A stretch of 64,000 nucleotides of DNA from Leucoraja ocellata (GCA_036785375.1 JAWMAR010000056.1:3658001-3722000), one strand, 5' to 3'. Positions 1,190 to 64,000 are shown, counted from the first letter of the stretch. The notes: generated from the letters alone by a model not told the origin. Made by a program: numbers and translations.

Positions 1190-1890
1190 TTTTTTAGGCA
1201 TATTTCAAAGTATTTTGTGCAGTTTTGGTCACCACATTACAGGAAGGATGTGGAGGCTTTGGAAAGGGTGCAGAGGATGTTTACCAGAATTAGGAGGTAT
1301 AAACTACAGGGAAAGTGTGGACAGGCTTGGATTATTTTCTCTGGAATGCCGGAGGTCGAGGGGACACCTAATAAAAGTGTATAAATTTGAGTATGTGTTA
1401 AAAAGAACTGCAGATGCTGGTTTAAACCAAAGATAAACACAAAGCTGGACTAACTCAGCGGGCCAGGCAGAAGCATCTCTGGAGAGAAGGAACGGGTGAC
1501 GTTTCGGGTCTCTGAAGAAGGGTCTCGATCCGAAACGTCACCCATTCCTTCTCTCCAGAGATGCTGCCTGTCCCGCTGAGTTACTCCAACTTTGTCTACT
1601 GTATAAAATTGAGACATACCCCATTTGTATACCCTAGCTATATTTTTCCCAGGATGGAAAAAAGCAGCTATGTGAGGCCTTAGCTTTAAGGTGAAAGGGG
1701 CATATTTTAAAGTGGGTAGAGAATGCCTGGAACACGCTGCGGTGGTGACGATTGAAGCAGATACATTAATGACATTTAAAAAGCTTTTGAGTATGGAGGG
1801 ATACGGGTTATGTGCAAGTAGATAAGTAATGATATTGGCATCCTGTTCAGCACTGACATTGTGTGCAGAAGGGCCTGTTCGTGTGCGTCT
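1190..1890 (+). mobile_element. Degenerate CR1 LINE 3' fragment, split by a Penelope-derived inverted repeat
   Basis: Translates to VQFWSPHYRKDVEALERVQRMFTR and DRLGLFSLECRRSRGHLIKVYK (CR1 ORF2 C-terminus). Resumes after about 1600 with a CR1-type 3' UTR (gaagggcctgtt). Confidence 0.8.
1395..1599. repeat. Penelope-derived inverted-repeat element with hammerhead-like core at 1512-1539 (+)
   Basis: Left arm (agcatctctggagagaaggaacgggtgacgtttcggg) is the reverse complement of the right arm (ccgaaacgtcacccattccttctctccagagatgct). Core ctgaagaagggtctcgatccgaaacgtc. tgtataaa-like sequence on both flanks. Confidence 0.75.
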
Positions 1891-2439
1891 TGATGATGAT
1901 AAATCTGTAATAGAATCCTTAAAAGCAGCTGCCAATTTACACGTTGACTCACTTCTGTGACATTTGTCACTGTCTCTGGGGTGCTAACAGAGCCTTTAGC
2001 TATTTGCCGAACAAAATGCACTCTAAGACACCCAAGTTAAAACTGGTGTAAAACTATGAAATTGTCAGGAACATATGATAATATCATTAAAACGCGTGTT
2101 TTAATGATATAAAATTCTCTGTCAGTGATGTAGTACTGTATGTTTTCCCTTTTTATTCACTCCACCAATGAAACATTGGCACAAGTGCAAAAACTATAAA
2201 ACTAGATTTGGATTATTTTATTGTTATTCACACCATGGTCCAATGACCTCCTTGGTTCAGCTGACGCTGGTAGTAGTAAACAATAAATACAGCTAATGCA
2301 GGATCAGCTGGCGGGGCAAATATTGTAGTGCAATCTGAAGTAATATAAAAAAAATGTGTGAAGTGCAATAACAGGATACCAAATGAGAGTTAAGAGGAAG
2401 GGTATGTGGTAGCACCCTGCATGGAGTGTGAAAAAGGTG

Positions 2440-2770
2440 ATGAGTTCATTACTAATATTTGTAGGGAAAAGGTGTTATTGAGCCTGGGCTTTCAAGGTTC
2501 TGTATCTTCTCCCAGAAGATAGAAGGGGGAAAAAAGGAATGGCCATCGTTGCAGGCAACTCCTACGACTGGGCAGAATTCACCACTCTTTACAGGTTAAG
2601 GCAGTCATGAGCATTTGCCATAATAGGCTGAGATGCATCCTGTCAAAATACTTTATATAGCGCAGAGAACATCGATAGCAGTTTGAGAGAATTTGTGTGG
2701 ATGTGTCAATCCTTCTCGGATGTCTTAGTAAATACGCTGATTTTTTTTTTTGATTACTGCATCATTGTGA
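2440..2770 (-). mobile_element. Degenerate Rex1/Babar-like LINE fragment
   Basis: Minus-strand sequence resembles the Rex1-type C-terminal LLPSGRRY region; heavily decayed. Confidence 0.4.
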
Positions 2771-2869
2771 AGGAACCAGGTTAGTTTGCTAATCATCTAG
2801 TTTGCTGATGATTTATAGATGTAAAGAAAGTTGAAGCTGTTGACAATCTTTGCAACCATACCATGGGGG

Positions 2870-3652
2870 GGGGGGGGGAGGTAAAGGGACAGGCGTTGCA
2901 TCTTCTGCGGTTGCAGGGGAAAGTAGTGGGATACTACTACTGGCCACATCTTCCCATCTCCACCCCTTTCTGCTTTCCGCAGACAGTTCCCTCCGTAACT
3001 CTGTGCTCAACTTGTCCCATCCCACCCATACCACCCCCTCCCCAGGTAGTTTCCGCTGCAACTGCAGAAGATGCAACACCTGTCCCTTTATCTCTCCCCT
3101 CGACTCCATCCAAGGACCCAAACAGTCTTTCCAGGTGAGGCAGAGGTTCACTTGCCACTCCTCCAGTGCATCTAGTGCATCTGCTGTTCCAGGTATCAAT
3201 TTCTCTACATCGGCGAGCCCAAGCACAGGCTCGGCGATCATTTCGCTGAATACCTCCGCTCAGTCTGTCTTAACCAAGCTGATCTCCCAGTGGTCCAGCA
3301 CTTCAACTCCCCCTTCCATTCCCAATCTGACCTTTTTGTCCTGGGCCTCCTCCATTGTCAGTGAGGCCCAGTGCAAATTGGAGGAACAGCACCTCATATT
3401 TTGCTTGGGCAGTTTGCACCCCAACGATAAGAACGTTGACTTCTCTAACTTCAGGTAGTCCTTGCTTTCTCTCTCCATCCCCTTCCCCATCCCAGTTTTT
3501 CCACTAGTCTTACTGTGTCCGGCTACATTCTTTCCTTGTCCCACCCCCTGCCTTTACATCAGTCGGACGAAGGGTCCCGAAACATCGCCAATTCCCTCTC
3601 TCCATAGATGCTGCCTCGCCTGCTGAGTTACTGCAGCATTTTGTGTCTACCT
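2870..3652 (+). mobile_element. Penelope-like element 3' fragment (GIY-YIG region + terminal repeat) with 5' inversion
   Basis: CNCRRCNTCPF..IQGPKQSFQVRQRFTC..KLEEQHLIFCLGSLHP matches the PLE zinc-knuckle/GIY-YIG C-terminus. About 2875-2922 is an inverted copy of about 3050-3098. Ends in a decayed hammerhead-type terminal repeat. Confidence 0.85.
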
Positions 3653-3659
3653 ATTGAGG

Positions 3660-3945
3660 TCAGGGTTGTGAACGGCTCCCCCCCCCCCCCCCCCCACGCC
3701 CGCCAATTAGGTCATCAACCATTTCTTTCATCTTGCAGACGTTAAAAGCTGGATTGATGTGCTGATGCTGCAACACACAAGGTGTTTTGGCCAACAACAG
3801 CAACGTCATTGTTGAACTTAAAGATTGAGTTGATGAGTACTTGGCCAGTGTCATGGGTGTACAGGGAGTACACTCTAGGGACCGCAAGGGTCTAGGCACA
3901 CTCGCTTGAGAAGTAAGTGCTGACGGTTATTGGGGAGGAAATGTT
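3660..3945 (-). mobile_element. Rex1/Babar-like reverse transcriptase fragment
   Basis: Frameshifted remnants of the ..YSL(Y)THD..AKYSSNS..KF..D and ..NV.K.KEMVD motifs. Confidence 0.55.
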
Positions 3946-5156
3946 AGACCAATAGTAAGTGAAAAACCCTGCTCCGTCTGGAAAGTAGTTGCCTTGAGCA
4001 CACACCATTGAATTTGGTAAGTGACAAATGGATTACCTTTCACAGCGTAGACAGCTGGTGGGACAGGGATGAGCCTCATCATATATCAAAGCCTTTCAGG
4101 AATGGAGCCAGTTGCATGCAGTCAGAATGACCCAATGTCTTGTTAATCTGGGAGCTTCATTTCCCAATTGTAAATTTATCCCACGACTCTGTCAGAATAA
4201 ATAGTGTGGTTGGAGATTTGGGGGATATTTGGGTTATTGGCAGTTTTGCTTGCCTCTTCGGTAATTTTTTTTTATCCCAACCAATGTTTGAGGATCATTA
4301 TTCTTTTCAGACTCTGCTTATTGACACTAGTTCAATATTCTTTTTCTAAGGAATCTACATGCCTTGTAAAGTAAAATTGTTATTATTCTTCAGTTCTGAT
4401 TGATCGCAGCATGGAGAAGCAGGTTGTAGCAACAGTTTGTGAAATTTGGGTGGAAAGGATTACTGGTTGGAAGCCACTAATATTTCTATTTTTATTTAGC
4501 CTTTCACTGTTTTCAATTCAATGCTCCCCATGCAGTATTTTGCACTTCATTTCACTAAAGTAATGTTTCTTGTAACATTCAGAGCAAGAATGTTAATTAT
4601 ATTGTAATTAACATCAGAATTATCTTATCAAAATGCTTAAGTTTTGAATTGTGTTTTCCAATACATATAGTATGATATCTACTTTTAAAGTATCTTTCTA
4701 AATGAAATTGTAAAGAAAATGCACAGATGTCCCATTGTTTAGTGTTGCCAGGGTTCAGTGCTTGCTTGATTATTCTGTGGAGGTGGTTTTGATGCCAGTT
4801 TGATAAATGACCGGAGCATACTTATCCCATACTTAATCTCTCGATTGTTTTGGCTGTGATCCTAAGTGTTGACTAATCATGGAATATGTAGCTGAATCAG
4901 TTGGTGTTCTAGATTAGCTATTTTCTGAATAAAATGATATGTTTAAAACTTTGACCTATGGTGTTAACATTTTCCTCAACGTTTTGACGTAATTTCTATA
5001 TCTCAAGTGGCTGTGACATGCAAAACAATCCCTCCAGTTTTCCTAACTGCCTCGCATGAATTTATTCAAAGTTAACTGGAACAAGCAATATGCCAGCAGA
5101 TTTATATAATGTACAGCATTTAGCTATATTTTTGCAAAGTGTTTTGCTTTTATTAA

Positions 5157-5489
<333 letters not shown>

Positions 5490-5979
5490 TAAGGCAAATT
5501 TTGTAGTTTTCCAGCAATAATTGTTTTAGTTATTGTAGCATCTTGACCTGTTGATACCCTGACATATTAAGTTTATTATAATGGGACAATATCCCTTTAT
5601 CTGATTTAGTAGCTGGGAAGTCAAACAAATGAGAAACAGAGTACAAGAATCCTCAATGCCTATGCAGACAATTATTTTGCATGTTTTAGTTTCATACACG
5701 TTGGTTCAATTAGTTGGTATTTTTCATCTTCGAAATTTTTGTTTTAGATATGCACTATTTCTGGAGCATATATGCTTGGGTCTGTGATATATTATAATTA
5801 ATTAGATATTGTCTTGCTATTGGCTGATTCTAATAAATTATTCTTTATTTTTCCTTGCAGTCTAGTCACACGCTTGCAGTATAAAAGCTTAAGGGGATGT
5901 CACCTGCAAGAGACAAAGTCATTGCAAGGCTAAAGGATGTTATCTCTTGGAGGCAGTCCAAAAAAAAAATCACTAGACT

Positions 5980-6320: not shown

Positions 6321-6404
6321 ATTTCTGTTTCGACCTTGCTCTGGCTCTTGACTGTAACAAAGGATGCATCAGAATACTTTGTACTGTTTTCTTTTATGAT
6401 TGAA

Positions 6405-11142: not shown

Positions 11143-11373
<231 letters not shown>

Positions 11374-13250: not shown

Positions 13251-15739
13251 CTAATTTATTTGAAGTTAGCCTTGCAATGCTTCAGCGCAATTTCCACGTT
13301 GTTGCAGGCACACTTGGACTGACTTAGCTGTCATTATGTTCTGTCAAACTAAATCTACAGTTTGTTCATTCTTCCTTGAAGTTAGCAGATCCATTATCCT
13401 TAAAATAAAATTCAACTCAACATTGTGATAAGTTGGTACTTGAAAGTTTATACCTCTGCACATATATTCCATCTTGACCCTTCGTTTTTCCTCTGCTCCT
13501 TGGCATGATCTACAGTTTCCATTGGCAGAGCTATCCCGTTCTCTTAAGAGGCAAAATTCCGAGTACTTTTTATCTTGATATACCAGGAATCATTTGTGTA
13601 GTGCATTGCAAGAGCCCTTTCTCCAGAGAGTTTAGTTTGGCAAATTGCCTAGTGTAGATACCTTGAATGAAAATAAACTGAGTTGACAACTTGGGTTTTC
13701 CCCAAGTGCTGCAATTACTCTTTGATATATGATGTACTCTTTTTTAAAAACAGCAGCTCATTTGAACTTCAAAAGTTTAAGATCGGACCCAAGGCTAAAT
13801 AAAGCAGATGTGTGGTTAAAATTTAAATAGTCTTTTAAGATCAAATGCTACTATTTCCACCAGCCCAATTCAAGCTCCATCTCTTGTTGTTGCCTGATTC
13901 CTTGTGCGCTTAATCTGCACTCGGATATATTTTTGATGCTTTGGATGCCTGAAAGGTTTGGGGAAAGCCGTGTGCTTTGCACAGTGTGTATGTTTGGACC
14001 AGTGGAGTGGACAGGAGTTGGGGTGGATGGGAAGAACAGAGGAATCAAGGAAAGGAAGGGTGAAGCAGGAGAGTGTTGGAAATGAGGGGGTAGTGGTCGG
14101 CTGAGGAGAGTTGGGAGGAAAACCTGATGAGGCCTGTGATGACAAGCACCTCTAATGAAGATGTTTGTGCAGCAGGGACTGGTTTGCAATGAACAAAACA
14201 AAATTACTGGAGGAATTCTGCAAGAGAAGCAACATCTGTGGAGGCAAAGGGATGGTCAATGTTTAGGGTTGAGACCCTGTATCAGGACTGAGTTTGGAGG
14301 GGAGATGGCCAGTCTAAAGATGTGCGAGAGGGGAGAGACTGGCTGGTAGGTGACTGGTGGAACCAGCTGAGTGGGGATGATGGGCAAATAGAACCGGCTG
14401 AGTGAGGTGGTGGAATTTGGAGACTGAAGCTGTTGGGCGATATTTGTAAATTGATAAGGGGTGATAGGCAAATGGAACCATGTGGGAGAGGGGGATAGAA
14501 AGGGTGACCTAAAAGCAGCTCTGCCAGCTTGTTCCACATACCCATCACACTTTGTGATGAAATCTCCCCTCGTGTCCCCTTTAAATCTTTTCTCGCTGAC
14601 CTTGAATTTGGTCTCTAGTTTTAGCCGTTCGTGTTAACTTTACCTGTCATGATTTTATACACCTCAAAATGTCGCCCTGCAACCTCTTGTGCTCCAGGAA
14701 ACAGACCCAGCCTATCTAGTCTCTCCTTGCCATTCAACTCTCCTGTCCCAGCAACATCCCTGAAAATCTTCATACTGGCCTCGGCCCAAAATATAAACCC
14801 TCCCTGTGCTTCCATAGATGCAGCCTGACCCGCTGAGTTCCTCCACCAGTTTTTCCATCATCAGCAGGTTTGCTGTCTGATGTCCTAGATCTCCTTGCCA
14901 TTGGACCCAGACCTTGCCTTGCCAAGGCTATGTGGTAGTTGGTAATGGGCATCTTCCACTCCTCAACTGAAGTGGAAGTGACTCATCTTCTTGTTCTTGG
15001 ATTCAAAGGTTCTGCCTTGAAATTCCCAATGAGCAGCATAAAGCCACTTAACAACTCGGAAAGATTCTCATGGGAATGCTGGCAGTTCTCGGAGCTGCTA
15101 GATTCCCTACCAATTGGTAAATCTTTGGATTCCATTCCCAGGTAGAAGTTCCGTACATAGTGGCAGCTTCTTGGCTGCAAGTTTATTTACTATGTAAAAA
15201 TGTACACATGACTTCTGCGGTGAGGCCATTCTGGTAACGGAAATTCATCCTTGCAGAATTTTCAAATCACTACCCAAAAAGTTGTTGTATGTCCTGCGTC
15301 CTGCGCACTTAATTTGTGTGAGTTGGTGGGGCTAGTAAATACAGCAATTTTTTAAAACTTTATATTCTTGACATGTATGTTGATAACACTACTACTCATC
15401 ATAGTCAATTGCAATACGGCCATTTTTTGGGGGACACAACTCTCCTGCCCACCCCTACATGGGTTACCTGTGCGTGAATTCTTGGTTTTTCCAGCGTTTG
15501 CACTGGGAAATCAATCCGCAGCCTACTTTCCTGACTCTGGCTCAGGAGAAAGGAATGACTTTAAAGGAGACAAGCCCCTGTTAACAGTTCTTGAATTAAT
15601 ATCTGAATTGCATTACGTTTAACTTTTGAAATATTTAAAGTTATGTGATTACTTAAAGATTTTTGCATGTTTGAACGGCAATAATTTGTAAACGTTGATA
15701 ACCTTGTCGGTCTGTAAGCAAGTTACTTAGATACTTAGA

Positions 15740-18680: not shown

Positions 18681-20854
18681 TTCCTTTGCACAAGGTGCAA
18701 CTACACTCGTGGGGGAGCTTTTGACAGATTAAAGAAGGGTCCCAACCTGAAACATTGCGTGTCCATTTCCTTCATGCTGCTTGACCTGCTGAATTCCTCC
18801 AGCACTTTGCCCAAGATTCCAGCATCTGCTGTCTCTTGTTTCTCTAAAGGCTTTTTCTGCTTGATCCATGTTGACTTTTGCCAGGACTCTTTTATACCGT
18901 TCTTGGTCATTCTTGCCACCTCTTGAATACAAAGTACTGCTTGCTGGTGTTGGAAATGAAACTAATTAGCAAGTACTGGAAATCAATGGTGCTTTAGTGT
19001 CCACTTACATGTGCCAAGATACAGTGAAATTCTTCTTTTACATTGGGCATCGCAGCATCTGTGGAGAGAAAAGGTAAAAGTCCACGCCAGTTTCATAAAA
19101 CGTGCTTTTGTTAGTGAATATATTTACTCTTATTAGCATGAGATATCATGGGTGAAATTGAAATGGCGCTGAGGAATAAATCATTAGTATGCAGGTTTGA
19201 AATATCATTGGACTCCATGCGCTAAACTGTAGCACGTTCGTAGAAAATGCTGGTAATACTCATTTATGCAGCACCTGTCGAAATATAAGTGGTTAACCTC
19301 ACAATCCTGGTGCTCTTTGTGTGGAATTTACGCATTCTCCCCGTAACTGTGGGTTTACTCCATGTGCTCCGATTTCCAACCTGACCCAAAACATCACCTA
19401 TCCAGGTTCTCCAAAGATGCTGCCCAATCTGCTGAGATGCTCTTTTTTTTTTGTAAGCCAGCATCTACAGTTTCTCCTTCTCTCCTCATAATCGTCAAAT
19501 CCAAGGGTACAAAATTCAGTTACTTAAAACTGAGTTTAGGGGCATCATTATATGTCGCCCTTATTGCATGAATACTCACTGGGCAGGTTTGGGCACAGGA
19601 TTTTTAATCTTATGAACAGTGCGTTGTGTTGAGTTACAGTTGGTATGTGATTGACCATTGGTTCAGGAGTAGTGGTGGGAATAGGATAAAGAACCCCCTG
19701 CAAGATTTGCACTTTGATGATTGAGTTTGCATTTATTTGATGTCCATCTTATTCAACCATTACCTATTGAGCAAGTTACAGCTGGTGTTTATTCATGTAC
19801 TGGTTTAACGTACATTGTCTTTGTCTTCTAATCCTGGTGGCTGGTAATGACTTGTTCGTAGCTGAAGTTTAGTTATTTTAAGATGTCGGCTGTAGTGACG
19901 GAAGAGAGATCTAAGGATTTTTGAAACTCCCATGTTTACGTTTTTCCCCCATGGTAACTATAAATCAATTTCAAAGTTTTAATCCCCTGAAGGATTTCAA
20001 TCTTTAAGTGAGATGGTTATGCAACCCCTAAAGATATTGGCTTTATGCTATTAAATACAATTAAATATCCTGTTGCATTTTAATTTAATAATGTTATTCT
20101 TTTGATTTGAGCTGAATGGCTAGCTTACGTTTTCTTTGCATTACAGAGTAATATAGCACAAAATTAGGCCATTTGGCCCAACTCTTCCAAGATGCTATAT
20201 TCAAGTTAATCCAACTAGTAAACCAGCATCTGCAGTTCTTCGTCTGGTCCCATTTATCTGTGTTTACCCCATATCCCTGTAAACCTTTCCTATCACTATA
20301 CTTTTTCAAATGCCTTTTTAAATGTTATTGTACTTGTATCTGGCAGCTCTGTGAAAGAAGTTGTGCGCCCCCCCCTCCGGGTCTCTTTTAAATCTTTCCC
20401 CTCTCACCCTAAAACTATGCCCTTATAAATAAAACATATTAAAATATAAAAAAGCACAAACACAGAAGTCCACGACACAACATAACCACAACACAACACA
20501 GTCCTGACCTGATGTGTTGTCTGTCCAAGGTAGACAAAAGTGCTGGAGAAACTCAGCGGGTGCAGCAGCATCTATGGAGTGAAGGAACTAGGCAACTTTT
20601 CGGGCTGAAACCCTTCTTCAGACTGATCAAACCATTCTTCCAGCATCTGCTGTTCCTTCTTAAACATATTGTCTGTCCACATCCTTGCACAGATTCAGCC
20701 TGACCCACTGAGTTCCTCCAGCCTTTTGTTTTGTATTTAACATTCTCGAATCTTTGCACTTCTTCCATCTTACTGTTTAGATGTTTTTCTTATAGCAGAG
20801 TAACCAAAACGGTACGTGATATTCCCTGTCCTCCTTAATTAACAACATTATATT

Positions 20855-22030: not shown

Positions 22031-23891
22031 CATTAGCTACTAATATTATCAAACCAAAGATTGTTTAATTCCATGCTACATCTTTGAGCTAATTGTATAA
22101 GGGAAGGATACCAAAATTTGCCATTGAAGCAAATGCAGCGGGATAGGTTGAGGGGCTGAAACATGTAACAGTCACGCTTCAAGACAGTGCTGGAGTGATT
22201 AGAACGGGTGTGAAGGGTTATGAGGAGAAGGCAGGAAAATGGGATTAGGTGGCAGAGATCATCCATGATTGACTGGCGAAGTGGACTCGATGGGTCGAAT
22301 GGCCTAATCCTACTATAACGTGAACGTGACTCGGGTCAGGCAGCATCTTTGGAGAACATGGGGCAATGACATTTTGAGTAGCGGCCCTTCTAACAGTTAA
22401 GCAATCTTGGTGGGTTTTTTAAAATATGATAAGATTATTGTGACTAAAACATATTGCGATTTTTAACGTGCATTCAACTATTTTAAATGCTATCAACTTA
22501 CTCGTACAGGTAACAGTTGGTAATGGAGAGAGTTTAATTTATATACTGACTTTCAGATTCCAAAAGAATTACACCCTTCACTAACAAATCCATTATTTTA
22601 TAATGAAGATAGACAAAATGCTGGAGTAACTCAGCGGGCATCTCTGGAGTGACGTCATGAGTCATCATGGGTGACGTTTCAGGTTGAAACCCCTCCTCGG
22701 ATTCTATTTTCTTTCTCCAGAGATGCTGCCTGTCCCGCTGATTTACTCCAGCATTTTGTGTCTATCATTGGTTTAAACCAGCATCTGTATTTCTTTCCTA
22801 CACATTCCTTTATAGTCTTTAGTTTAATAAATTTTAAATCTTTATACAGATGGACATGGATGTTCATATTACTTTCATGTACTGTTACTCCAGTAATATT
22901 GGTTGCAAGGATTGCTCATTAATTGATAATTCCATTCTTTTAACGCAAACTAAGCCTTGCTGTTGGAAGCTGGTTTAGAGCTGTCTGGCGCTAATAAGCC
23001 CTCTGCTGGTTAATATGCAGTAGTACTCTATCAGTTGGGCCACTCTAAAGTTCCTATTCCCATTCTAGTAAATTGAGTTTCTCTGACATATATGCAATCT
23101 CTGCATGTCAAATTATTAATATACAACGTGAAGAGTAGCTGCCCCAGCACCGACCTCTGTGGAACTCTGCTAGTCACTGGCAGTGAACTGGAAAAACCCA
23201 CCTTTATTGCTACTATTTGCCTTCTGCCATCCAGCCAACTTGCTCATATACATGTTTAAGAAGGAACTGCAGATGCTGGAAAATTATAGGTAGACAAAAA
23301 TGCTGGAGAACTCAGCCGCTGAGTTTCTCCAGCATTTTTGACTGCTCGTATGCATGATATTATTCATATTCTGTCCTTAAAAATACTTCTGTTTTTAATT
23401 AGAGGAAGTTCTTAAGTTTGTAATAGAAGTCATGTTGTTGTACTGGGCCATATATTTTTTTTATTAGTCCGGTTGCAGGTTACTAGCTACCTGAGAATAT
23501 CTGGAATGCTAATCATTTAGAGGTCCCAAATGTGTGAAATTGTCTTCTTTCAAAATGTTCTAAATTGTATTTCATACCTATAAAGAACTGTCCTAAAGGC
23601 ATTTCAATGTTTTCTATGCCAATTAATTAGATTTTAAATGGTCACCTTTACATAAGCAAACATGTAAATCAATTGTACTCGGCAAGATACCAAGACCAGC
23701 AAAAGAAAACTAAGTTGTACTTTTAAAAGTTAAAAGGATAATAGGGCAAAATTCCAACTGTCAAATATTATGGAGTCGTACACCATAGAAATGAGCCCTT
23801 CAGTTCATGTACATTCTGAAAATCCACGTACCGTTCTATACTAACCCCATTTAATAGCATTGATCTATATCCTTGTATATTGGACTATACA

Positions 23892-33179: not shown

Positions 33180-33382
33180 GAGAAACAAAATGCTGGAGTA
33201 ACTCAGCCGGTCAGGCAGCATCTTTGAAGAGAAGGAATGGGTGATGTTTCGGATCTGAACCCTTCTTCATGCCCGAAATATCACCTGTTCCTTTTTTCTA
33301 GAAATGCTGCCTGACCTGAGATACTCCAGCATTTTGTCTATCTTCTGTGTAAACCAGCATCTGTAGTTCCTTCCTACACATT
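33180..33382. repeat. Penelope-derived inverted-repeat element
   Basis: Arms acaaaatgctggagtaactcag.. / ..tactccagcattttgt around a decayed hammerhead core. Confidence 0.7.
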
Positions 33383-44292: not shown

Positions 44293-44522
44293 TGTGTAGG
44301 AAGGAACTGCAGATGCTAGTTTATATTAAACCAAAGATAGACACAAATTGCTTGAGTAACTCAACGGGTCAGATAGCATCTCTAAAGAAAAAGGATGGGT
44401 GACATTTTGGGTCGCAAACCTTCTTCAGACTGAAGAAGGGTTCTGACCCGAAACGTCACCCATCTTTATTTTCACCAGAGATGCTGCCTGACCTGCTGAG
44501 TTACTCCAGCACTTTGTGTCTT
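44293..44522. repeat. Penelope-derived inverted-repeat element; intact hammerhead-like core at 44430-44457 (+)
   Basis: Palindromic centre cttcttcag-a-ctgaagaag. Core ctgaagaagggttctgacccgaaacgtc. Arms of about 90 bp are mutually complementary. Confidence 0.8.
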
Positions 44523-45130
44523 ATCAACAGCAGCATTTGTACTAGGATCTGATCAGGTAACTCAGTATCCAAAAAAGAACATTGCAGATGAGTGGAAAAT
44601 GTAAAAGGAAAATGCTGTACTAAAGATAGAGCACTAGGGGCTAGTGGAGCCAAGGGATATAGGGAGAAGGCAGGCACGGGTTATTGATACGGGACGATCA
44701 GCCATGATCACAATGAATGGCGGTGCTGGCTCGAAGGGCCGAATGGCCTCCTGCACCTATTTTCTATGTTTCTATGTAAATTTTCTGATGATGCTTAATT
44801 GTGAAAAGATAGGAGAATTGCAATAGATTGCATCAATTATTTTGCAAAAAAATCAATGGTCTCTTAAAAGTTCACGTTTATAAAAAGAAATTTGCATTAA
44901 TATCGAACTGTTTATATTCCAAGTAGAGATCCTTTTCTACTTTTATTGAAGAAACGAGTGGAACGTATTGGAAATAAGGTAGGCAGCGTCTGTGGAGAGG
45001 AGAACAATGGGTTTAAATCAGGAATGAGGGGAGATTAGAGATGAACAAGCATTAGAAATAGGATTATGGATCGTAGAGATGGAAGAAAGCAAAGGAAAGG
45101 TCATGAAAGGTGAAATCATAAAGGGTGTAA

Positions 45131-49782: not shown

Positions 49783-50511
49783 ATTGCTGTGATTGAACGA
49801 GGAAATTGGCAACGAGGAAGCTAATATTTTTCAGTTTTCTAAATACCAGAAATGTACATGGACTGGATGACCGAAAAGTGTAAGTTATTTATTGTAAACG
49901 CAGGCCAGTAAAAGCCTTCTAATTATAACGTACATTGGACTAGGCTATAATTACCACATTTATATCTTACGCATTTTTTTGTAATTACATACACTTGAAA
50001 GACTTTAAAAGATGAACAAAAAACAGTTAGAGGAATACAGCGGGTCAGGCAGCATCTGAGGAGGGAAATGGACAGACAATGTTTCCACCCTGCTTCGGAC
50101 TGATGCAGTAAAGGGGAGATTGTTGGTACAAAGAGGTGAGAGGAAGGGGGTGGGATAAGAACTGAGAATTGATACAGCACTCTCTCCATATTTTTCGAAT
50201 CCCTTTCCAATCAATGAGTAACGTAAGATAAAGGGAAGGTAGACACAAAAAAACTGGAGTAACTCAGCAGGTCAGACAGCATCTCTGGAGAAAAAGAAAT
50301 AGGTGACGTATCGGGTTTTCGGACTGAGAGTCCGGGGAAAGGGAAACGAGAGATATAGAGGGACAAGTGAATGAAAGATATGCACAAAAGTAACGATGAT
50401 AAAGGAAACATGCCATTGTTAGCTCGGGGGGGTGATGGTGATGGGGAGGGATGACGGGGATGGAGTGAGAGGGACAGAGAGAGAGAGATTTCTCTAACTT
50501 GCTTGAAGTTA

Positions 50512-50875
50512 AGGGCCTGTCCCACGAGCATGCGACTGCATGCAGCAAGCGCGACCAAATGGAAGCGGGAGCCGCACGGAGGTCGAGTGATCCTGTTGAG
50601 ACGGTGCGTACGGCGTCGAGAAGCTGCGTATGCCTGACAAGGCGGTGCGTACGGCCTCAATGTGGCTGCGGGCCGGCAGGCCGTTTCCGCGCTGGATTTT
50701 TGGACAGTGTCAGTTTTTCGGAGCCCTGTGCGATGTCGGGACCAGCTCCGCACAACTCCATATGGCTCCGGCCATCGAAGTGGGACCGGTCCCGCGAGTA
50801 CAGGACCGTACAGCTCAAGCGACCACGTTAGGTCGCGCTAGACGCATGCAGTCGCATGCTCGTGGGACAGGCCCT
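50512..50875. mobile_element. PIF/Harbinger-like MITE (same family as 36879-37341, opposite orientation), inserted in an antisense Penelope fragment
   Basis: TIRs agggcctgtcccac / gtgggacaggccct. TTA TSD at 50509-50511 and 50876-50878. Host encodes KLEEQHLIFCLGSLQP on the - strand. Confidence 0.88.
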
Positions 50876-52419
50876 TTAGAGAAATCAATACTCGTACCAC
50901 TGGGTTGTAAGCTGCCCAAGCAAAATATGAGGTGCTGTTCCTCCAATTTGTGCTTGGCCTGGGATGTGGACGTAAAAAGGATAGAGGGGAATGGAAAATG
51001 TTTATATGAAGGAGGCATTGGTTTCCAATAGTAGAGTTATTGTTATCATGGATTCCAAGCCAATCTTTTCATACACACTAGATAAAGGGTTGAAAGTAAA
51101 AGGAGATAAAAAGCTATAGGAACCAAGATAGCAACAGCATTTTAAGTAATTAGCAATGGGGACCATTTAACTGAATGGCTTGTTCTTGTGCTGTAAATTA
51201 ATGTAATGCATAGACAGAAAGAAATGATCCCATAATAACCATTCAAATAAACACATTAACGCACAGAATAGCCAGCAGCGCCTTAACAATTGGTCGAATT
51301 GTGTAATTCTGTAAATGGTAACTAAAGTAAAAAGTTGGCGGCAATTTTACTCAAATGTTTCATCGCAGATTTTAAAAGACATTGTGCAAATGTCATTCAT
51401 ATGGGGCCGTTAAAAGAGCCTTGTGGCCCATGAGATAATTGACAGATGATTTATGCAGATCGAGACGCAACAAAGGGCAGGACAATGACAAGGAGGTAAT
51501 GCTCAATGTACCTAACAGTAACCTGGTTTTCCATAAGAATCTATTATGGAACCCCTGGCTATATGTAATTTCTGTGCATAAAATGGATTTGAGCATCTGG
51601 AGTATTAAATTTTCTGATCTGAAAGCAAGTCACGAGGAGACCGACTATCTTCAGAGGGACTTGGTCCAATTACTTAGATGGGAGTGAGATAGGGCAGATA
51701 GAATTTAATATGGATAAATGTAGGATAATGTGCACAGGATCAAGTAACAACAAGCGGGTATGACTTGAAAGGGGCTTCATTGGCATGATAGAGGTCTTTG
51801 AAATAGACGAAAAAAAAGAATTTAGGAGTGATCGTATTCTGAAGGCATCTGGTCGGTGTCAGGCAGTTATTAAAAAGCTAATTGGGTATTCTGGGGTGCA
51901 TCTGGAGTTCAGAAGATGTAATACTGACATTATACAGATCAACGTTGAGACTTATTCCAGAGGAAAAGGAGCAGTTTTTACATCACCTAATTTCAAAAAA
52001 TATATAGGGATACATTAAAAATTTGTAGAAAGACTTACCAGAGTGGTTCTGGGCCTTAGGAATGACAATCTCCTGACAAAAGGCCATTTCACTGCAGAAA
52101 GAAGGACTATGGTGAATTCACTTCACATAATGAAAAGCATAGAATTTACTACGTAGCGGAGAGGACAAAACGAAAGCAGGAAATTGGGAAACCCTGATTA
52201 ACATTGTGATTTTAATAAAGTATATAAAGTTTGTCTGTGATAATTCGTAGCAGATGACACACTGTTTTTTAGAGATATTTTGAAAGGGATAATCAAAAGG
52301 CAAGAAATTGCAGATGTTCGAAATCTGAAATAAAAACACTCCATCTTTCATCCCAGCAGACTTTGCATTCAACAGATCTTCTTTCATAATTTCTGCTACC
52401 TTCAATGAGATTCCAACGT

Positions 52420-52740
52420 CTGATACATCTTCCCCCCTCCTCCATCAGGATTCCATAGGGAACATTGCCTCCATATCTCCCTGGCTTCTTTCCTTGTCCA
52501 CTGACCACTTGCTACTTCCCCTTCTTCCTTCTCTCCTTCCCATGGCTTTCTCCCATGCAACCGCAGGAGCTGCAACACCTGTCCTTTTACCTTTTCCTTC
52601 CCCACCATCCATTCCCAAAATATCCTTCCAGGTGAAACTGCAATTCGCTTGCACCTCATCCAATCTCCTGCATTTTATACAGCGCACACAGCGTGGTCTT
52701 CAGGGCATCGCAGAGACCAGGCGCAGATTGTCTGAATACA
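52420..52740 (+). mobile_element. Diverged Penelope-like fragment
   Basis: PCNRRSCNTCP..ISFQVKLQFACTSSNLLHFI..ETRRRL. Confidence 0.7.
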
Positions 52741-52882
52741 GAGCATAGAAACTTAAAAAAACAGAAAATAGGTGCAGGAGTAGGCCATTCGGCCCTTCGA
52801 GCTAGCACCACCATTCAGTACGATAATTGGCTGATCATCCAAAATCAGTACTCCGTTCCGTTTTTTTCCCCCATATCCCTTG

Positions 52883-53367
52883 GGCTGTGGCGGCGTTCCA
52901 GCGGCGGCGACCCGACTTCGGAGGTTCGGCCGTGGGCCCAGTAGACGACATCGTCGGGAGCTCGCAGGCCACAGGTTGGTGACCTGTTTTTCCGGAGCTC
53001 CCGCGGCAACAGCGTCGTCTGCTGGACTGGAGGGCGGCAGCTTCGACCACCCTGGGCCGCGGAGATTGAACCGACCTGTTCGCGGAGCACGGTTGAGCCG
53101 CGGGACCGACTTACCATCACCCGGTGGGGTCACATCATCGCAGGCCTGGATCGTCTCAGCGCAGAGGGAGAACACGGAGGGAAGAGACAAAGACTTAAGA
53201 CTTTTGCCTTCCATCACAGTGAGGAGGTGCCTGGTGAACTCACTGTGGTGGATGTTAAATTTGTGTTAATTGTGTGTTTTGTTGTTTTATTATATGTATG
53301 ACTGCAGGCAACGGAATTTTGTTCAAACTGAAAGGTCTGAATGACAATAACGTTTTCAAGATTCCAA
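52883..53367 (+). mobile_element. GC-rich non-autonomous retro-element with a caagatt-type repeat tail, inserted in a CR1 tail
   Basis: Host ..ccatatcccttg | insert | gattcccttagcccctaagagc. 3' hairpin at 53211-53251; gacaataa before the tail. Confidence 0.65.
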
Positions 53368-53756
53368 GATTCCCTTAGCCCCTAAGAGCTAAATCTAACT
53401 CTCTCTTGAAAAATTGAGAGCACATATGTGTAGGAAAGAATGGACTGTACCCTTAATTAAATTGTATCTCTGTATGCTTCGTTGTCACCTTCTCCTAGCT
53501 TACAATGATCTATTCTACATTTTCCTTGATCACCATCCTCTTTGATGTCCCATTTTCACACCTTACACTTCCTTATCTCTGTGTCTCCCTCTCCCCTGAC
53601 TCTCAGTATGGAGAAGGGTCTCGAAAGAAAGCATCGCCCATTCCTAATATCCAGAGATGCTGCGTGTTCCGCTGAGTTACTCCAGCATTTTGTGTCTATC
53701 TCCAGAGCACATATGTTCAGTCTACAAGGTTGACACTGAGCTCCCAGACACTCCCG

Positions 53757-53995: not shown

Positions 53996-54169
53996 AGTGA
54001 ATGGACGCATAGATCCCGCACCAGATCAAATTGCTTTCTATATTCAGTCAAAAGATGTGGCCAGCAATTAATTGCTCGGGCCTAATTAGCCTTTAGAAGG
54101 TGGTGCTGAGCTGCCTTCTTGAATCACTGCAGTCCTCGAGGTGCGTGGCAGAACAATGCTATTAGAGGG

Positions 54170-54753
54170 GTAGACACAAAAAGCTGGAGTAACTCAGCGG
54201 GACAGGCAGCATCACTGGGTGACATTTCAGGTCGACACCCTTCTTCAGACTAGTTAGGGATAAGGGAAAGGAGAGATATAGGCGATGGTGGAGAGATAAT
54301 GAACAATGAATGAAAGATGCAAACAAAGTAACAATGATAAAAGAAACAGGCCATTGTTAGCTGTTTAAGAGGGAACTGCAGATGCTGGAGAATCGAAGGT
54401 TACACAAAAAAGCTGGAGAAACTCAGCGGGTGCAGCAGCATCTATGGAGCGAAGGAAATAGGCAACGTTTGGCTATTAGCTGTTTGTTGGGTGAAAACGA
54501 GACTGGGAGGGATAGAGAGAGAGAGAGAGAGAGAGAGAATCTCTCGTTTCCCTTATCCCTAACTAGTCTGAAGAAGGGTCTCTGTACTGTACACTGACAA
54601 TGACAATTAAAATTGAATCTGAATCTGAATCTGAATCTGATCCGAAACGTTGACAATTCCTTCTCTCCAGTGATGCTGCCTGTCCCGCTGAGTTACTCCA
54701 GCTTTTTGTGTCTACTTTCGTTTTAAACCAGCATCTGCAGTTTCTTCCCACAC
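54170..54753. repeat. Compound Penelope-derived inverted-repeat cluster
   Basis: Left arm cccttcttcagactagttagggataaggg is mirrored by cccttatccctaactagtctgaagaaggg. A second-subfamily copy lies at 54372-54470. Confidence 0.75.
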
Positions 54754-55114
54754 AATGCTATTAGGGAGAGACTGCTGGGAGAATCCCAGCATTGTAAATA
54801 CTGGGGAATTCCAAAAGTCTCACACTCCATACATGTGAAGTTGGGCGGAGCAGCCTATTTTGTAAAATTGCTGTGGACCTTGGCCAGAGTTCATGGACGC
54901 TCACATTTGCGGTGGGTGTCCTGAACTTGCTGCTACTTGTGATGAGAAATGAAAACAGTTCTTCATCAGTAGGTCTCAGCTCAATGTCATCATGATGTTA
55001 AATGCTGGGCTGTCATTGCATGACATGAAAATGAGAGCAAATGTGGAAAAAATGAAACTAGGCAAAGGGGAAAATAAGATCAGCTCTCGGAAACAGAAAT
55101 GGACAATAAGAAAG

Positions 55115-55560: not shown

Positions 55561-55625
55561 AGAAATACATACAGACAAAACTTGGAGTGTTAAATTCCAT
55601 ATCTTTGTAACATCTGTATTCCTAT

Positions 55626-55832
55626 GTGTAGGGAGGAACTGCAGATGTTGGTTTAAACCTAAGATAGACACAAAATGCTGGAGTAACCCAGCAGGACAGG
55701 CAGCATCTCTGGATAGAAGGAATGGCTGATGTTTCGGGTCAAGACCGGCTCTCGACCCAAAACGTCACCCATTCCTTCTATCCAGAGATGCTGCCTGTCC
55801 CACTGAGTTACTCCAGCATTTTGTGTCCATCT
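55626..55832. repeat. Penelope-derived inverted-repeat element
   Basis: Arms gacacaaaatgctggagtaac.. / ..gttactccagcattttgtgtc. Confidence 0.75.
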
Positions 55833-57149
55833 ATATTCCTATTATAATTGAGTTCACAGTAATTACCGTGCATCGTTCCAGCAACACAAGAAATGGTGTG
55901 GGAAGATGAACAAATATCAGTACATATTCAATAATATTGATTCAGACATCAGCATGTTCTTATCTCCACCTATAAGAAAAGTATTGTCAATACCAGGCTG
56001 AATAACATATGCACTTCTAACTAAATCGTGAAACACAAAGAACTGGGCGATCTCAGTGGGTCAGGTAGCACCTGGGGAGGTACAGGTGGACAGGTGACAT
56101 TTTGGGTTGGAACCCTTCCCCTGGAACCTTTCTTCTGATTGAATTCCACTCCGAAACATCACCTGTGCATTCCCTCCGAAGACATTATGGTCCTTCAGCA
56201 CTTTGTGCTTTGCTCAAGAATCCAGCATCTGCAGTTCCTTGTGTTTCCACACTCTTAACTAAACGAGGATTCTGATTTTAGGACAACAGCTCGACGATTC
56301 AAGCAGTGTTTAGTAAACGCTCCGGCATCTGGCTATCGTTTTGAGTAAACAAATCTAGATATTGCTTGTCATTAATTGTTAATTATTTGGAATAAGTGGT
56401 AGCATTAATTTCTAGATTTAGGCTGCAGGATGGATTTGATCAATTTAATTTTAATGGGAGTTTGTACAATAATGGCTCCAAAAAATAATTGATAAATCCA
56501 CAGGGCTTGAGGAAGGAGAGTATTGTGATTGATGTACAAATAATTGAATAATTAAAGATAATAAGTAATGCACTGATATAGAACTGCAGGAAATGGAGGA
56601 AAGATGTATGAAAATTGGGATTGATTTCTCAAATCTTCACAAGAAATCATTTTTGGCCTGTAGATAGCCGATAATTTGTTTTCTCAGCTGAATTAAAGTT
56701 GAGGGTTTGATTAGATTAAGAGCAAGTAAGAGACTGAAATGAGATTGGAACAGAAAGAGGCAAGGCTATGGGCTTTAATTAGGAGGAAAAATGTTACAAA
56801 GGTTTATTATAATTCAAAGATAAAATAAATAATTACTTAATGTTTTGAATTCTGTGGTAGTAATAGAAAGGATACTTAAATTAGTCTCCAACTCCACCCA
56901 TCATGACCCACCGCACATCTGGAAGTGTCCAGAGGATAAAAAATAGAACAGTGCAGCACAGAAAGAGGCCCTTTGGCCCACAATGTCTGTGCCCAACATA
57001 GTTTCTATGAAGCATTAGAACTTAGAGATGGAGACAAGACACGATACTTGGGCAAAGGCAAGTTTAAGTTTGATTTTGAGTTTTGTTTATTGTCATATGT
57101 ACTGAGGTGCAGTGAAAAGCTTATGTGGTGTACAAAGCAGTCAGCAGAA

Positions 57150-59158: not shown

Positions 59159-60652
59159 ATGATCACATTGAATGGCTGTGCTGGCTCGAGGGGCCGAATG
59201 GGCTACTCCTGCACCTATTGTCCATGGTCTTCCTTCATAGGACTGAAACAATTTATTAATTTTTCATCCACAGAATAAATTTGCTGAGGATAGTGCTTTT
59301 TCTACATCTTTGGCTTAATAATGAAAACAAATATTTATTATCAGTTGGATAATTTTAATAGGCTAATCCTTAGGGCTCCATGAGGGTTTAATTTGTTAGA
59401 ATTATACAACTGAACCAAAGTGATCTTTGATTGAAAAGAGATGTGGAAACGTTTTTATAATCACATACTAGGTTCAATATTCTTTGTAGTGGGATGCGTG
59501 CTAGATTTTCTAGACACAAGGAACTGCAGATGCTGGTTTTACACAAATGGACACCAAGTGCTGGAGTAACTCAACAGGTAGGCAGCATCTCTGGAGAAGA
59601 GGAAATGTGTAGGAAGGAACGACAGATGCTGGTTTAAACAGAAGATAAACACAAAATGCTGGAGTAACACAGCGGGAAGTTTGAAGAAGGGTCTCGACCC
59701 GAAAAGTCATCCATTCCTTCTCTCCGGAAATGCTGCCTGTCCCATTGAGTTATTCCAGCATTTTGTTTCTACCTTCAGCATCTCTGCAGAACATGGATGG
59801 GTGACATTCCAGCCAGGTCCCGACCCGAAACGTTACCTATCCATAATTCTCCAGAGACGCTGCCAGACCCACTGAGTTACTGCAACTCTTTGAGTCCTTT
59901 GACTATCTTTTATAACTTGCTAGTCAATGGAACAACACCAAGGATGCTTAATGCCATAACATACTGTGAAAATGTGTGGGTGCAGAGTTTCAATTAATAC
60001 CTTTCTAATTTATAACATATTAATGCAGTCAGACAGCCCAACTTTATAACTTCTGAATGCCAAATATCACAAACAATATTTGTGTACCAGGTGAGATGGT
60101 CATGGAGTCATGGAAACAGGCCCTTTGGCCCAACTTGCCCACTCCAACCAACATGTCCCATCTGCACTAGTTCCATCGGCCTGCCTTTGGCCCATATCTC
60201 TCTAAACCTATCCTATCTATGTACCTGCCTAAATGTTTATTAAACATTGCAATAGTACCCGCTTAAACGTTGCGATAGTACCTGCGATAAACATTGTGAT
60301 TGTACGCACATGAAAAGTTGTACACTTGCTTGCAGAATAACTAGTGTAGTCTCCTTTGGTGATGGCCAAACAAAGATCTTTTCCTGACGTAAGTTCCATG
60401 GTTCTGAAAATTGGAAATGTTTTTATGCACAGAAAGGCCTAGGCTAATTTATACCAAATTTCCGTGAATGTGGAATAACCCCATACCTCTTGAACAATGA
60501 CCCACAGAAATCTGAGTTTCTTCCTTGTAGTTTTCTTTGTAGAATCAACTGCGCAGTTGGTGACCATTCAGTCCATCATGTCAGCGGCTCGTTAAAGTAA
60601 AACTAGCCTGCTTGAATCAGGCTTTTCAAGTGCCCAACTTACTGTTTCTTAA

Positions 60653-61082
60653 TGTGTAGGAAGGAACTGCAGTTGCTGGTTTAAACCGAAGATAGACACA
60701 AAAAAACTGGAGTAACTCAGCGGGACAGGCAGCATCTCTGGAGAGAAGGAAAGGGTGACGTTTCGGGTCGAGACCCTTCTTCAGCTGACAAAAAATCTCG
60801 ACCAGAAACGTCAGCCATTCCTTCGCTCCAGAGATGCTGCCAGAGATGAACAAGGGGACTGAACTTTTATTGCCTTCCCTCACAATGGGAAACGTTGATT
60901 CCGCTGTGGGGGATGTTTTATGTTTTATGTCAAATTCTATAGTGTTGTGTTTATCTTATTTGTGCGCTGCATGGTAGCTCAAATTTCATTGCACCAATAT
61001 GTGTGTGTGACAATAAATGTCCTTTGTCCTTTGTCCTTGTCCCGTTGAGTTTCTCCATCTTTTTGTGCCTATCTTCGGTTTA
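60653..61082. repeat. Penelope-derived inverted-repeat element; consensus hammerhead-like core at 60757-60784 (-); insert at 60842-61037
   Basis: Minus strand reads ctgaagaagggtctcgacccgaaacgtc. The right arm is interrupted by a (tgtcctt)n-tailed element. Confidence 0.8.
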
Positions 61083-61279
61083 CTATTTTACTTAAACCTG
61101 AAGATGATGTCACAATTTCCTAATCAAAGGAAAGTGTTACATAAAGTCATAAGCTCATAAGGTCATAAGGAATAGGAGTAGAATTAGGCTATTTGGACCA
61201 TCGAGTCTACTCTACCATTCAATCATGGCTGATCTATCTCTCTCTCCTAATCCCGTTCTCCTGCCTTCTCCCCGTAACC

Positions 61280-61914: not shown

Positions 61915-62447
61915 TAACCTCTGACACCTGTACTAATCAAGAATATATCAATCTCTGCCTTAAATATATCCACTGACTTGGCCTCCACAGCGTTCTGTGG
62001 CAAAGAATTCATCAAACAATTTTAGAAAAAATGCTGAAGACAGCACGAATTTGCTCGGAATAAATCGCTTCCAGAACGTCTCTGCATGTTTATAATTTGC
62101 AGTGAAGCTAGGAACTTTTACATCTCACCTAAATGTGAAAGCCACATATGGAGGAGATCTCACACTCCTGCCTTCACACCTCGAGGCTGCACATTGGCAG
62201 AGCAAAGTTACCCTTTGTAGCCATAAAGGGTTTGACTGCTCGTTTAACGGATAATCTGAGTAACAAAACCTTTCTCAGCAGGCACATCTAAACTATCCGG
62301 CTCATTCATTTCAGTCAAGGCTAAGAATATAATAATTTACAGGGTAAACCTTTTTAATTTAAATGTAATTCTTAAGGTTGGAGTCCACAGCGTTATTGGC
62401 GACAGATACTCAGCAGTCTGATTCTGTATCTGTCTAAAGTTCTTGGG

Positions 62448-62663
62448 CAGGGGGTTCCCAACCTTTTTCATCCCGTTTACCCCTGGCAACTTTAATAGCA
62501 CATAACAATGTTATTTCACTTATTTATGAACAACTAATGATGAACAGATACTGGTATACCAGAACCAAACACAGTCAGTCAATGAGAAAAAATATGTACT
62601 AATCCAGAATCAACAAATTTACCCCCTGGGTAGGCGAAATTTACACCAGCGTGGGAACTCTTG
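62448..62663. mobile_element. hAT-like MITE
   Basis: Termini cagggggttccca / tgggaactcttg. 8-bp flanks ttcttggg and tcctaggg (6/8). Confidence 0.65.
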
Positions 62664-62670
62664 TCCTAGG

Positions 62671-62977
62671 GCATCACGGTAGAGTTGCAGCCTTACAGCT
62701 CCAGAGACCCGGGTTCGATCCTGTCTACAGGTGCTGTCTATAAGGAGTTTGTACGTTCTCCGCATGACCGTGTGGGTTTTCTCCGAGTGCGCCGGTTTCC
62801 TCCCACATTCCGAAGACGTACAACCTTGTAGGTTGATTGGCCTTGGTAAAAATTGTAAATTGTCCCTAGCGTGTAGGGTAGTGTAAATGTACGGCGATCG
62901 TTGGTCGGCATTGACTTGATGGGCTGGAGGGCCTATTTACACGCTGTATCTCCAAACTAAACTAAACTAAACTAAAC
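62671..62977 (+). mobile_element. V-SINE (HE1-like)
   Basis: B box gggttcgatcc, V-domain, (ctaaa)n tail. Confidence 0.88.
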
Positions 62978-62978
62978 A

Positions 62979-64000
62979 GTTCTTCCCATCTCTCCCCCCA
63001 TATCTGCCTTCCACAAAGACCGCTCCCTCCATAACTCCCTTGTCAATTCTTCCCTTTCCTCCCGTACCACCCCCTCCCCGGGCACTTTCCCTTGCAACCG
63101 CAAGAAATGCAACACTTGTCCCTTTCCTTCCTCCCTCGACTCCGTTCAAGGACCCAAGCAGTCGTTCCAGGTGCGACAGAGGTTTACCTGCATCTCCTCC
63201 AACCTCATCTATTGCATCTGCTGCTCTAGATGTCAGCAGATCTATATCGGTGAGACCAAGCGGAGGTTGGGCGATCGTTTCGCCGAACACCTCCGCTCGG
63301 TCCATAATAACCAACCTGACCTCCCGGTGACTCAACACTTCAACTCCCCCTCCCACTCCGTATCCGACCTCTCTGTCCTGGGTCTCCTCCGATGGCCAGA
63401 GCGAGCATCACTGGAAATTGGAGGAACAGCACCTCATATTACACTTGGGGAGCCTGCATCCTGGGGGCATGAACATTGAATTCTCCCAATTTTGTTAGTC
63501 CTTGCTGTCTCCTCCCCTTCCTCAGCCCTCCTGCTGTCTCCTCCCATCCCCCAGCCTTCGGGCTCCTCCTCCTTTTTCCTTTCTTCTCCACGCCCCCCCA
63601 CCCCCGATCAGCCTGAAGAAGGGATTCGGCCCGAAACGTTACCTTTTTCCTTCGCTCCATAGATGCTGCTGCACCCGCTGAGTTTCTCCAGCTTTTTTGT
63701 GTACCTTAAACTAAAAGGTTGCTGTTTAAGAAGGAACTGCAGATGCTGGAAAATTGAAGGTAGACAAAAATGCTGGAGAAACTCAGCGGGAGAGGCAGCA
63801 TCTATGGAGCGAAGGAGATAGGCAACGTTTCAGGCCGAAACCCTACATTGGAGGAGCAGCACCTCATATTTTGCTTGGGCTGTTTGCACCCCAGCGGTAT
63901 GAACATTGACCTCTAATTTCAGGTAGTCCTTACTTTCTCCTCCCCTTCTCAGCTCTCCCTCAGCCCTCTGGCTCCACCTCTTCCTTTCTTCCTCCCCCCC
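62979..64000 (+). mobile_element. Penelope-like element 3' part: GIY-YIG endonuclease, hammerhead-bearing terminal repeat, inverted copy and further partial copy
   Basis: SSNLIYCICCSRCQQIYIGETKRRLGDRFAEHLRSV..PVTQHFNSPSHS (IYC..YIG). Core ctgaagaagggattcggcccgaaacgtt at 63613-63640. Inverted terminal repeat at about 63725-63843. Confidence 0.92.

Follow-up and report, generated by a model that had tools for sequence, protein, structure and literature searches.

The question raised by a 64,000-nt stretch of the Leucoraja ocellata genome (GCA_036785375.1, JAWMAR010000056.1:3658001-3722000; hereafter, the window) is what kind of mobile element scatters a hammerhead ribozyme motif over it in many short repeats. 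A sequence-only reading had proposed a separate, nonautonomous family, similar to short interspersed elements (SINEs) or retrozymes, that is mobilized by the machinery of Penelope-like elements (PLEs). Our analysis indicates that the repeats are almost certainly the terminal repeats (pLTRs) of PLEs themselves. The repeat module, here called the arm, belongs to several endonuclease-bearing PLE families and is found in solo insertions, linked to an open reading frame (ORF), or in head-to-head insertions. Mobilization by PLE machinery was borne out, and loci encoding a reverse transcriptase (RT) and a GIY-YIG endonuclease end in the arm; a separate family is not supported, the module being the pLTR of autonomous PLEs in the same genome.

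The connection between arm and PLE is apparent in a tandem array (L253/L277, G000:C1 ~8,664,400-8,674,400) of near-identical full PLE units with a period of 3,985 bp; within L253, three arms lie 3,985 bp apart, each adjoining the ORF. With the C of CUGA numbered 0 and the predicted cut placed after +27, each unit consists of the arm, a tail reaching +129, an ATG at +164, 1,234 codons, a 3' untranslated region (UTR) of ~116 nt, and then the next arm, which places the module on both sides of the ORF, the 3' copy being the one that opens the next unit. In one unit, the 1,234-aa frame is uninterrupted and contains DKG, YIDD, and IY-CxxC-YIG motifs and a CX4CxxC linker. The N-terminal half of this frame is long and proline rich, with short internal repeats. 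The RT-endonuclease part matches 765 database proteins, the best at 54 to 55% identity, and the RT family PF00078 is present in most homologues among the 120 matches listed. By its linker motif, which conforms to the CX2-5CxxC criterion of PMC8557442, the element appears to be of the Neptune/Nematis type.

The same association is seen within the window, where the end of a GIY-YIG endonuclease with a CX4CxxC linker (62976-63476; Pfam GIY-YIG E 9e-4, below the curated cutoff) is followed on its 3' side by a pyrimidine tract and then by the hammerhead core at 63613. Window positions 62981-63703 are 93% identical over 725 nt to the 3' end of L035, a locus encoding RT and GIY-YIG, and the match continues through the hammerhead; an older copy at 2936-3646 is 74% identical to the same locus over 735 nt. 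A first look at the genome gives 146,829 candidates for the endonuclease protein of the window, and the genome loci with long frames encode RT and GIY-YIG and carry an arm of one subfamily, B, at the 3' end. Arms of another subfamily, A, are located 3' of older endonuclease ends (57 to 75% identity) that have their own 3' UTRs. The three commonest arm variants are common to short and ORF-linked copies (24/12, 10/11, and 16/3, short/long).

Judged by its letters, the motif in the arm is a minimal type I hammerhead, with the core letters, the extra base before G10.1, the G10.1-C11.1 pair, and a palindromic 15.2-16.2. Helix I has 2 pairs only, with 74% of cells paired across 80 aligned copies, in place of the 4 to 5 bp of PLE minimal hammerheads. 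A strict motif scan found CUGAAGA..GAAA cores in repeat context at 1512, 44430, and 63613 on the plus strand and at 60757, 54225, and 20598 on the minus strand. The four cores previously described as intact (1512, 44430, 60757, and 63613) do contain CUGAAGA, GAAA, and GUH, but helix II is mismatched (A.G) in the one at 63613, and both helix I pairs are kept in none of the four. No hammerhead family matched in an Rfam scan of the window, which returned only two weak microRNA family matches; these lie on fold-back arms and were dismissed as chance hairpins. When five single arms were folded, all five were no better than shuffles (z -1.6 to +0.2), and the hammerhead fold was not the minimum-energy one.

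Subfamilies A and B, the two proposed previously, are both real: their exact 37/38-mers occur 7,592 and 22,899 times genome-wide, compared with 0 for a reversed-pattern control. Their number was underestimated, however, as 412 full arms clustered into at least six groups, all of them sharing AGTCTGA at the core's 5' edge. The catalytic letters are conserved across subfamilies. Helix II of the main groups reads GGGU-CUCG-ACCC, GGGU-UUCG-GCCC, or GGGU-CCCG-ACCC; the changes are therefore one-sided (U-A to U.G). Stem II is structure preserving, as claimed, only in the sense that pairing survives a one-sided change, and compensatory double changes between the main subfamilies were not seen. The covariation check that had been called for was null, with a score of 0.130 versus 0.128 for shuffles and 210 of 500 shuffles scoring as high. 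It used 80 copies, the first on a list of 147 full arms (window and sampled loci together) from which window 55663, window 33181, and L093:6014 had been set aside.

A profile built from 10 window copies detected 42 arm matches in the window, compared with 0 when the window was reversed as a control; grouped by eye, these matches represent ~27 insertion sites. The previous count of roughly 20 copies, one per 3 kb, was therefore slightly low, although the copies themselves are real. Of 17 positions listed at that time, 16 are in or beside a profile match, whereas 54568 is a 5' half-core fragment only, with a PLE-type 3' UTR directly 5' of it. Three features that the sequence-only reading did not include, namely, head-to-head pairs, the tail, and attached endonuclease fragments, were all found. 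Genome-wide abundance was estimated from 60 stretches of 10 kb at round coordinates of the larger contigs (600 kb), which contain 293 arm matches (0.49 per kb, 4.6% of bases; 0 in the reversed control); extrapolation yields ~1.7 million arms in the 3.44-Gb genome. Many of the copies are short and have a fixed 5' boundary, which gives the family its SINE-like look. A separate arrangement was observed at L034:6495-6799, where 4 to 5 co-oriented tandem repeats of ~66 nt consist of the 3' part of the arm (from GAAAC), without the CUGA half.

Young insertions retain the marks of how the copies were made. The first 100 matches of the subfamily B 3' anchor on contig C1 (of 31,530 genome-wide) comprise 97 distinct arms, the 3' ends of which are bimodal, 66 at +87 to +103 and 31 at +126 to +129. 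The two 3' ends, ~36 nt apart (about +93 and +129), delimit the PLE tail. A flank word of at least 8 letters is shared in 35 of 60 scorable noninverted arms (mode, 14), compared with a mean of 0.75 and a maximum of 4 for shuffled pairs, and the target duplications of young copies are 13 to 15 bp. In addition, 34 of the 97 arms make up 19 head-to-head insertions; the tail is on exactly one arm in 19/19, and 18/19 have a target duplication of 9 to 18 letters. Of 54 older pairs in the 600-kb sample, 40 have a single tail (P = 3e-4), 9 have none, and 5 have two; of 78 adjacent arm pairs in this sample, 54 are head-to-head and 21 are co-oriented. The head-to-head junctions vary from copy to copy and are often at small palindromes (TCAG-N-CTGA, AACGTT, and GGCC), so that each fold-back was likely assembled at insertion. 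A single palindromic master element was ruled out, since junctions differ between copies.

At the 5' side, 56 of the 97 young arms start between -6 and +10, with a peak of 18 at -2, the first base of the 2-bp helix I. Of the others, 5 begin within the upstream 114 nt, 26 extend further up into the ORF, and 10 start at +11 to +48; the predicted cut site, +28/29, is the start of only 4. Genome-wide patterns that demanded two mismatching letters before a 33-mer gave 3,020 starts at -2, 579 at +1, 793 at +18 (a count inflated by sequence variants), 598 at +28, the cut site, and 377 at +32. Thus, the copies do not preferentially start at the predicted cleavage site. The tract upstream of the core is 84% pyrimidine. 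In the 3' UTR of the unit (for example, window 63496-63612), a pyrimidine tract ends in CAG directly before helix I, resembling a splice acceptor, and in Drosophila virilis Penelope, helix I begins, on its 5' side, where the 3' end of an intron has been mapped (PMC4209133). A spliced upstream exon was ruled out as the source of the -2 start, with 0 to 2 letters between the duplication and -2 in the copies inspected. In one case (L258:4776-5105), a single insertion with an 11-letter flanking duplication is composed of two short runs, one ending at -2 and one at -1, with the upstream run extending ~100 nt beyond the tail into the ORF's beginning, which points to a jump between templates at the 5' end of the RNA.

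Taken with the unit structure, the two 3' ends, the duplications, the single tail of young pairs, and the 5' peak, all observed directly, the pLTR origin of the family probably extends to a common explanation for the short copies, namely, that reverse transcription starts within the module and runs off a template RNA whose 5' end lies at the hammerhead's edge. The RT/GIY-YIG protein would make a staggered cut of ~14 bp, and complementary DNA (cDNA) would start at +93 or +129. Starts in the downstream module would generate randomly truncated ORF-bearing copies, whereas starts in the module at the RNA 5' end would generate run-off copies of ~95 or ~130 nt. Both nicked strands would prime, one per start site, and the cDNAs would join by microhomology into a one-tailed head-to-head pair. 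The RNA 5' end would probably be a transcription start in the conserved TCAGT, which we take to resemble an initiator motif. On balance, we lean toward an element RNA that starts at about -3/-2, which would therefore carry the module at its 5' end; if the template begins near -2, the short copies would be run-off cDNAs, and hammerhead cleavage would have little part in making them. In vitro, the RT of an anole PLE starts internally at two sites bracketing the tail and the protein cuts and extends both strands, and hammerhead cleavage is not needed for insertion (PMC11167929). The Drosophila Penelope promoter is inside the pLTR (PMC2377424), and the rotifer pLTR contains an initiator-like TCACT (PMC3846280). 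For palindromes of this type, self-priming on an antisense template has been put forward as an alternative (PMC3846280).

Several observations weigh against this account. The Pfam scores of the unit protein are below the curated cutoffs for both RT (E 1.4e-6, 28.6 bits versus 29.6) and GIY-YIG (E 0.013, 16.3 bits versus 22.6). The 97 young arms come from one contig and include a few duplicated loci; 17 of them form a second start group at +3 to +10, and the peak at -2 is one off the initiator-like A at -3. In a small sample, one variant is skewed to short copies (16 versus 3), and an endonuclease end is within 450 nt upstream in only 11 of 137 core-complete arms of the sampled 600 kb; most old copies are therefore ORF free and could have multiplied alone. 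Finally, three raw RNA runs and one contig set (oligo-dT and single-cell cDNA, possibly from related species), mapped on the unit junction, list no position where many molecules begin or end, the libraries not having been built for capped ends. RNA ends at the cut site, as previously predicted, are likewise not listed in these runs and contigs, from libraries that can miss circles. RNA depth over the arm is 2,000 to 6,000 on both strands versus ~1 to 50 over the ORF start, as expected from passive transcription of dispersed copies, and loose read ends at -2 and -3 echo the genomic junction pile-up and are not evidence of RNA ends. The single-cell runs also display a strand bias. Among indexed sequencing runs, no RNA run is listed as containing the element.

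The scarcity of attached ORFs among old arms and the skewed variant are what would be expected of a self-propagating SINE-like family, in which copies of ~95 to 130 nt are transcribed from an internal promoter, use the PLE protein in trans, and leave daughters with the same 5' end. The fixed 5' boundary (56/97) is the shared, defined 5' end typical of SINEs, and pLTRs suffice for mobilization in trans in rotifers (PMC3846280). The daughters would be flankless and therefore structurally indistinguishable. Nevertheless, we regard this explanation as improbable: the three commonest variants are present in both short and long copies, copies that start at -2 lack the upstream TCA and pyrimidine tract, no tRNA, 5S, or 7SL head was found in the window (Rfam, E up to 1), and the inversion junctions vary, so that the palindromes are not copies of one master. 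Far less probable still is a population of non-LTR retrozymes, with hammerhead self-cleavage freeing monomers that circularize and are retrotranscribed. The catalytic letters are indeed kept across subfamilies, 5' ends are 1.6 times as frequent at the cut site as at the +32 control (598 versus 377), and animal retrozymes have been proposed to be pLTR derived (bioRxiv 10.64898/2026.07.22.740005). However, cut-site starts are no commoner than those at +1 or +18 and are five times rarer than those at -2, and part of them are palindromic junctions; the window contains no tandem array of the unit, neighbors in the sampled 600 kb are predominantly head-to-head rather than co-oriented, and the RNA runs list no pile-up of RNA ends. 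Furthermore, the motif is without a helix III loop (PMC4209133), and a dispersed monomer should therefore not cleave.

The 5' pile-up could, alternatively, mark a stop, that is, RT stalling or a 5' exonuclease halting at a protein-bound hammerhead base or at the C-rich tract, with the short copies being hotspot truncations; we consider this possible but doubtful. A stop would fit the position of the peak, exactly at the first base of the 2-bp helix I, and the pyrimidine richness of the upstream tract. That tract and its CAG end at -2, as the D. virilis Penelope intron ends at helix I (PMC4209133), and splicing factors could therefore bind there; moreover, the anole PLE hammerhead needs protein to act (PMC11167929). 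Conversely, the folded arms were no more stable than their shuffles, and the short copies show no exon sequence from upstream lying between -2 and the target duplication. An RT is expected to pause as it enters a stem rather than as it exits. More tentatively, the genome may be read as a million-copy record of PLE integration, with RNA starting from the helix I edge, internally initiated "strong-stop" cDNAs integrating alone, and one RT dimer priming both strands. Every fold-back would then draw on both start sites and have the tail on only one of its arms; the region of the hammerhead would be mainly a promoter and protein-binding site; and some short copies might spread as promoter-bearing SINE-like elements without an RNA polymerase III head.

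Within the window, the profile identified head-to-head pairs at 1394..1597 (subfamily A arms; left, minus-strand arm tailed, right arm with core 1512-1539), 22601..22804 and 33181..33380 (right arm tailed in both), 55625..55832 (left arm tailed), and 56029..56240 (old, right arm tailed), as well as a very short pair without the hammerhead at 23253..23343 (left arm tailed). The pair at 44293..44525 (left arm tailed, plus-strand core 44430-44457) is joined at a TCAG-N-CTGA palindrome just 5' of the core, and in the pair at 60653..60843, the left (minus) arm has the core 60757-60784 and the tail. Old decayed arms were found with the profile at 14197..14285 (minus strand) and, with a tail, at 18726..18837 (plus strand). 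More complex arrangements are a subfamily B arm with core 20594-20621 (minus) beside which lie an inverted piece of the tail and a fragment of an older arm (20518..20731); a cluster at 54169..54754 that includes an arm with 3' UTR (54169-54251, minus), a B arm with tail (54362-54472, minus), the half-core fragment (54563-54583, plus), and an arm with tail (54633-54754, plus); and, at 59518..59904, five clustered arm pieces found with the profile, with two head-to-head junctions among them.

Remnants of the coding region accompany other arms. The older 5'-truncated PLE copy at 2936..3653 (plus strand) consists of a broken GIY-YIG C terminus, a pyrimidine-rich 3' UTR, and a decayed hammerhead arm (3560-3653), with a short inverted piece beside it at 2873-2924. 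At 50235..50949 (minus strand), an arm (50235-50317) is separated from an upstream endonuclease C-terminal fragment (50879-50949) by an element with inverted ends (50514-50873), and at 52343..53706 (plus strand), decayed endonuclease fragments (52343-52769) are followed further on by a pyrimidine tract and an arm (53604-53706), possibly as separate insertions. The young 5'-truncated copy of subfamily B at 62981..63707 (plus strand) carries the CX4CxxC linker, the GIY-YIG end, the 3' UTR, core 63613-63640, and a short 3' end without the tail. Next to it, at 63723..64000, an inverted tailed arm (63723-63848) is head-to-head with a second truncated PLE at the window edge, the endonuclease end and 3' UTR of which extend from 63847 and the arm of which is just past the window (L281:516-618).

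Other repeats were also noted. Two related elements, 36881-37339 and 50514-50873, have the inverted motif GGCCTGTCCCAC at both ends and are likely nonautonomous DNA transposons; the latter interrupts a PLE copy. A 34-bp-period tandem repeat with a PLE inserted into it occupies L035:1-2400, and single units related to it are at window 12945-12984 and 60138-60175. A 504-aa open RT frame at 27721-29235 (minus strand; Pfam RVT_1 E 6e-35) belongs to what is presumably a CR1/LINE-like element. The frames that flank it (26251-26862, 29352-29999, and 30411-31472) resemble pieces of another, interrupted LINE and have no Pfam match.

The family is PLE biology of an already known kind and is useful mainly for repeat annotation, rather than the window's best candidate for an underdescribed system, as it had been presented; dispersed single or opposite-strand minimal hammerheads have been attributed to truncated PLEs (PMC4209133). 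In searches of the published literature alone, outside Dfam and Repbase, that covered cartilaginous fishes and short solo-pLTR insertions, we found no paper on this family or describing a start of PLE copies at the helix I edge, although the supplements of bioRxiv 10.64898/2026.07.22.740005 may list cartilaginous-fish families. Animal non-LTR retrozymes (PMC7761336; bioRxiv 10.64898/2026.07.22.740005) likewise are noncoding, have a type I hammerhead related to PLE pLTRs, and presumably use PLE machinery. In contrast to their tandem, hammerhead-bounded units of 150 to 300 nt and circular RNA, the arms described here occur singly or in head-to-head pairs, with starts upstream of the core: no such tandem units were found within the window, co-oriented neighbors account for 21/78 pairs, and ends at the cleavage site number 598 at +28 versus 3,020 at -2 (controls, 377 to 793).

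The metazoan PLE minimal hammerheads (Cervera and de la Pena 2014, PMC4209133) have the same CUGANGA core, extra base before G10.1, G10.1-C11.1 pair, and palindromic ACGU replacing helix III, and they too occur as dispersed singles and opposite-strand pairs. Helix II is 4 bp and helix I is 2 bp here versus 7 to 8 and 4 to 5 bp in Schistosoma families, the 2-bp helix I being as in the D. virilis variant; compensatory double changes were not seen between the main subfamilies here. Canonical endonuclease-bearing PLEs (Craig et al. 2021, PMC8557442; Arkhipova et al. 2013, PMC3846280) insert as tandem units of a single RT-then-GIY-YIG ORF with a pLTR that contains a hammerhead, an adjacent inverted 5'-truncated copy, a tail of 30 to 40 bp at one end, and target duplications, and all of these, including the head-to-head inverted copies, were found here. 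What sets the present repeats apart is a very high abundance (if the 600-kb sample is representative, ~1.7 million arms making up 4.6% of bases), copies that mostly comprise no more than the 95- to 130-nt module, with a sharp 5' boundary at the helix I edge, and an ORF that begins after the tail, not inside the pLTR.

These counts are relevant to an open question, how inverted copies and tails arise in PLEs. That young fold-backs carry strictly one tail and that the 5' peak lies upstream of the ribozyme is consistent with internal priming on two strands and speaks against the inserted RNA being defined by ribozyme cleavage. Poseidon PAc of Anolis carolinensis (Frangieh et al. 2024, PMC11167929) corresponds to the model proposed here in the two internal RT starts bracketing the tail, the cutting and extension of both strands, and insertion without hammerhead cleavage, and it likewise shows no RNA sequencing ends at the cut site. 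It belongs to a different PLE clade, however; the linker zinc-finger motif is present here, and the ORF starts inside the hammerhead in PAc but at +164 here. With its 1,234-aa frame open, a young element of this kind allows the model to be tested in vitro for a second PLE clade.

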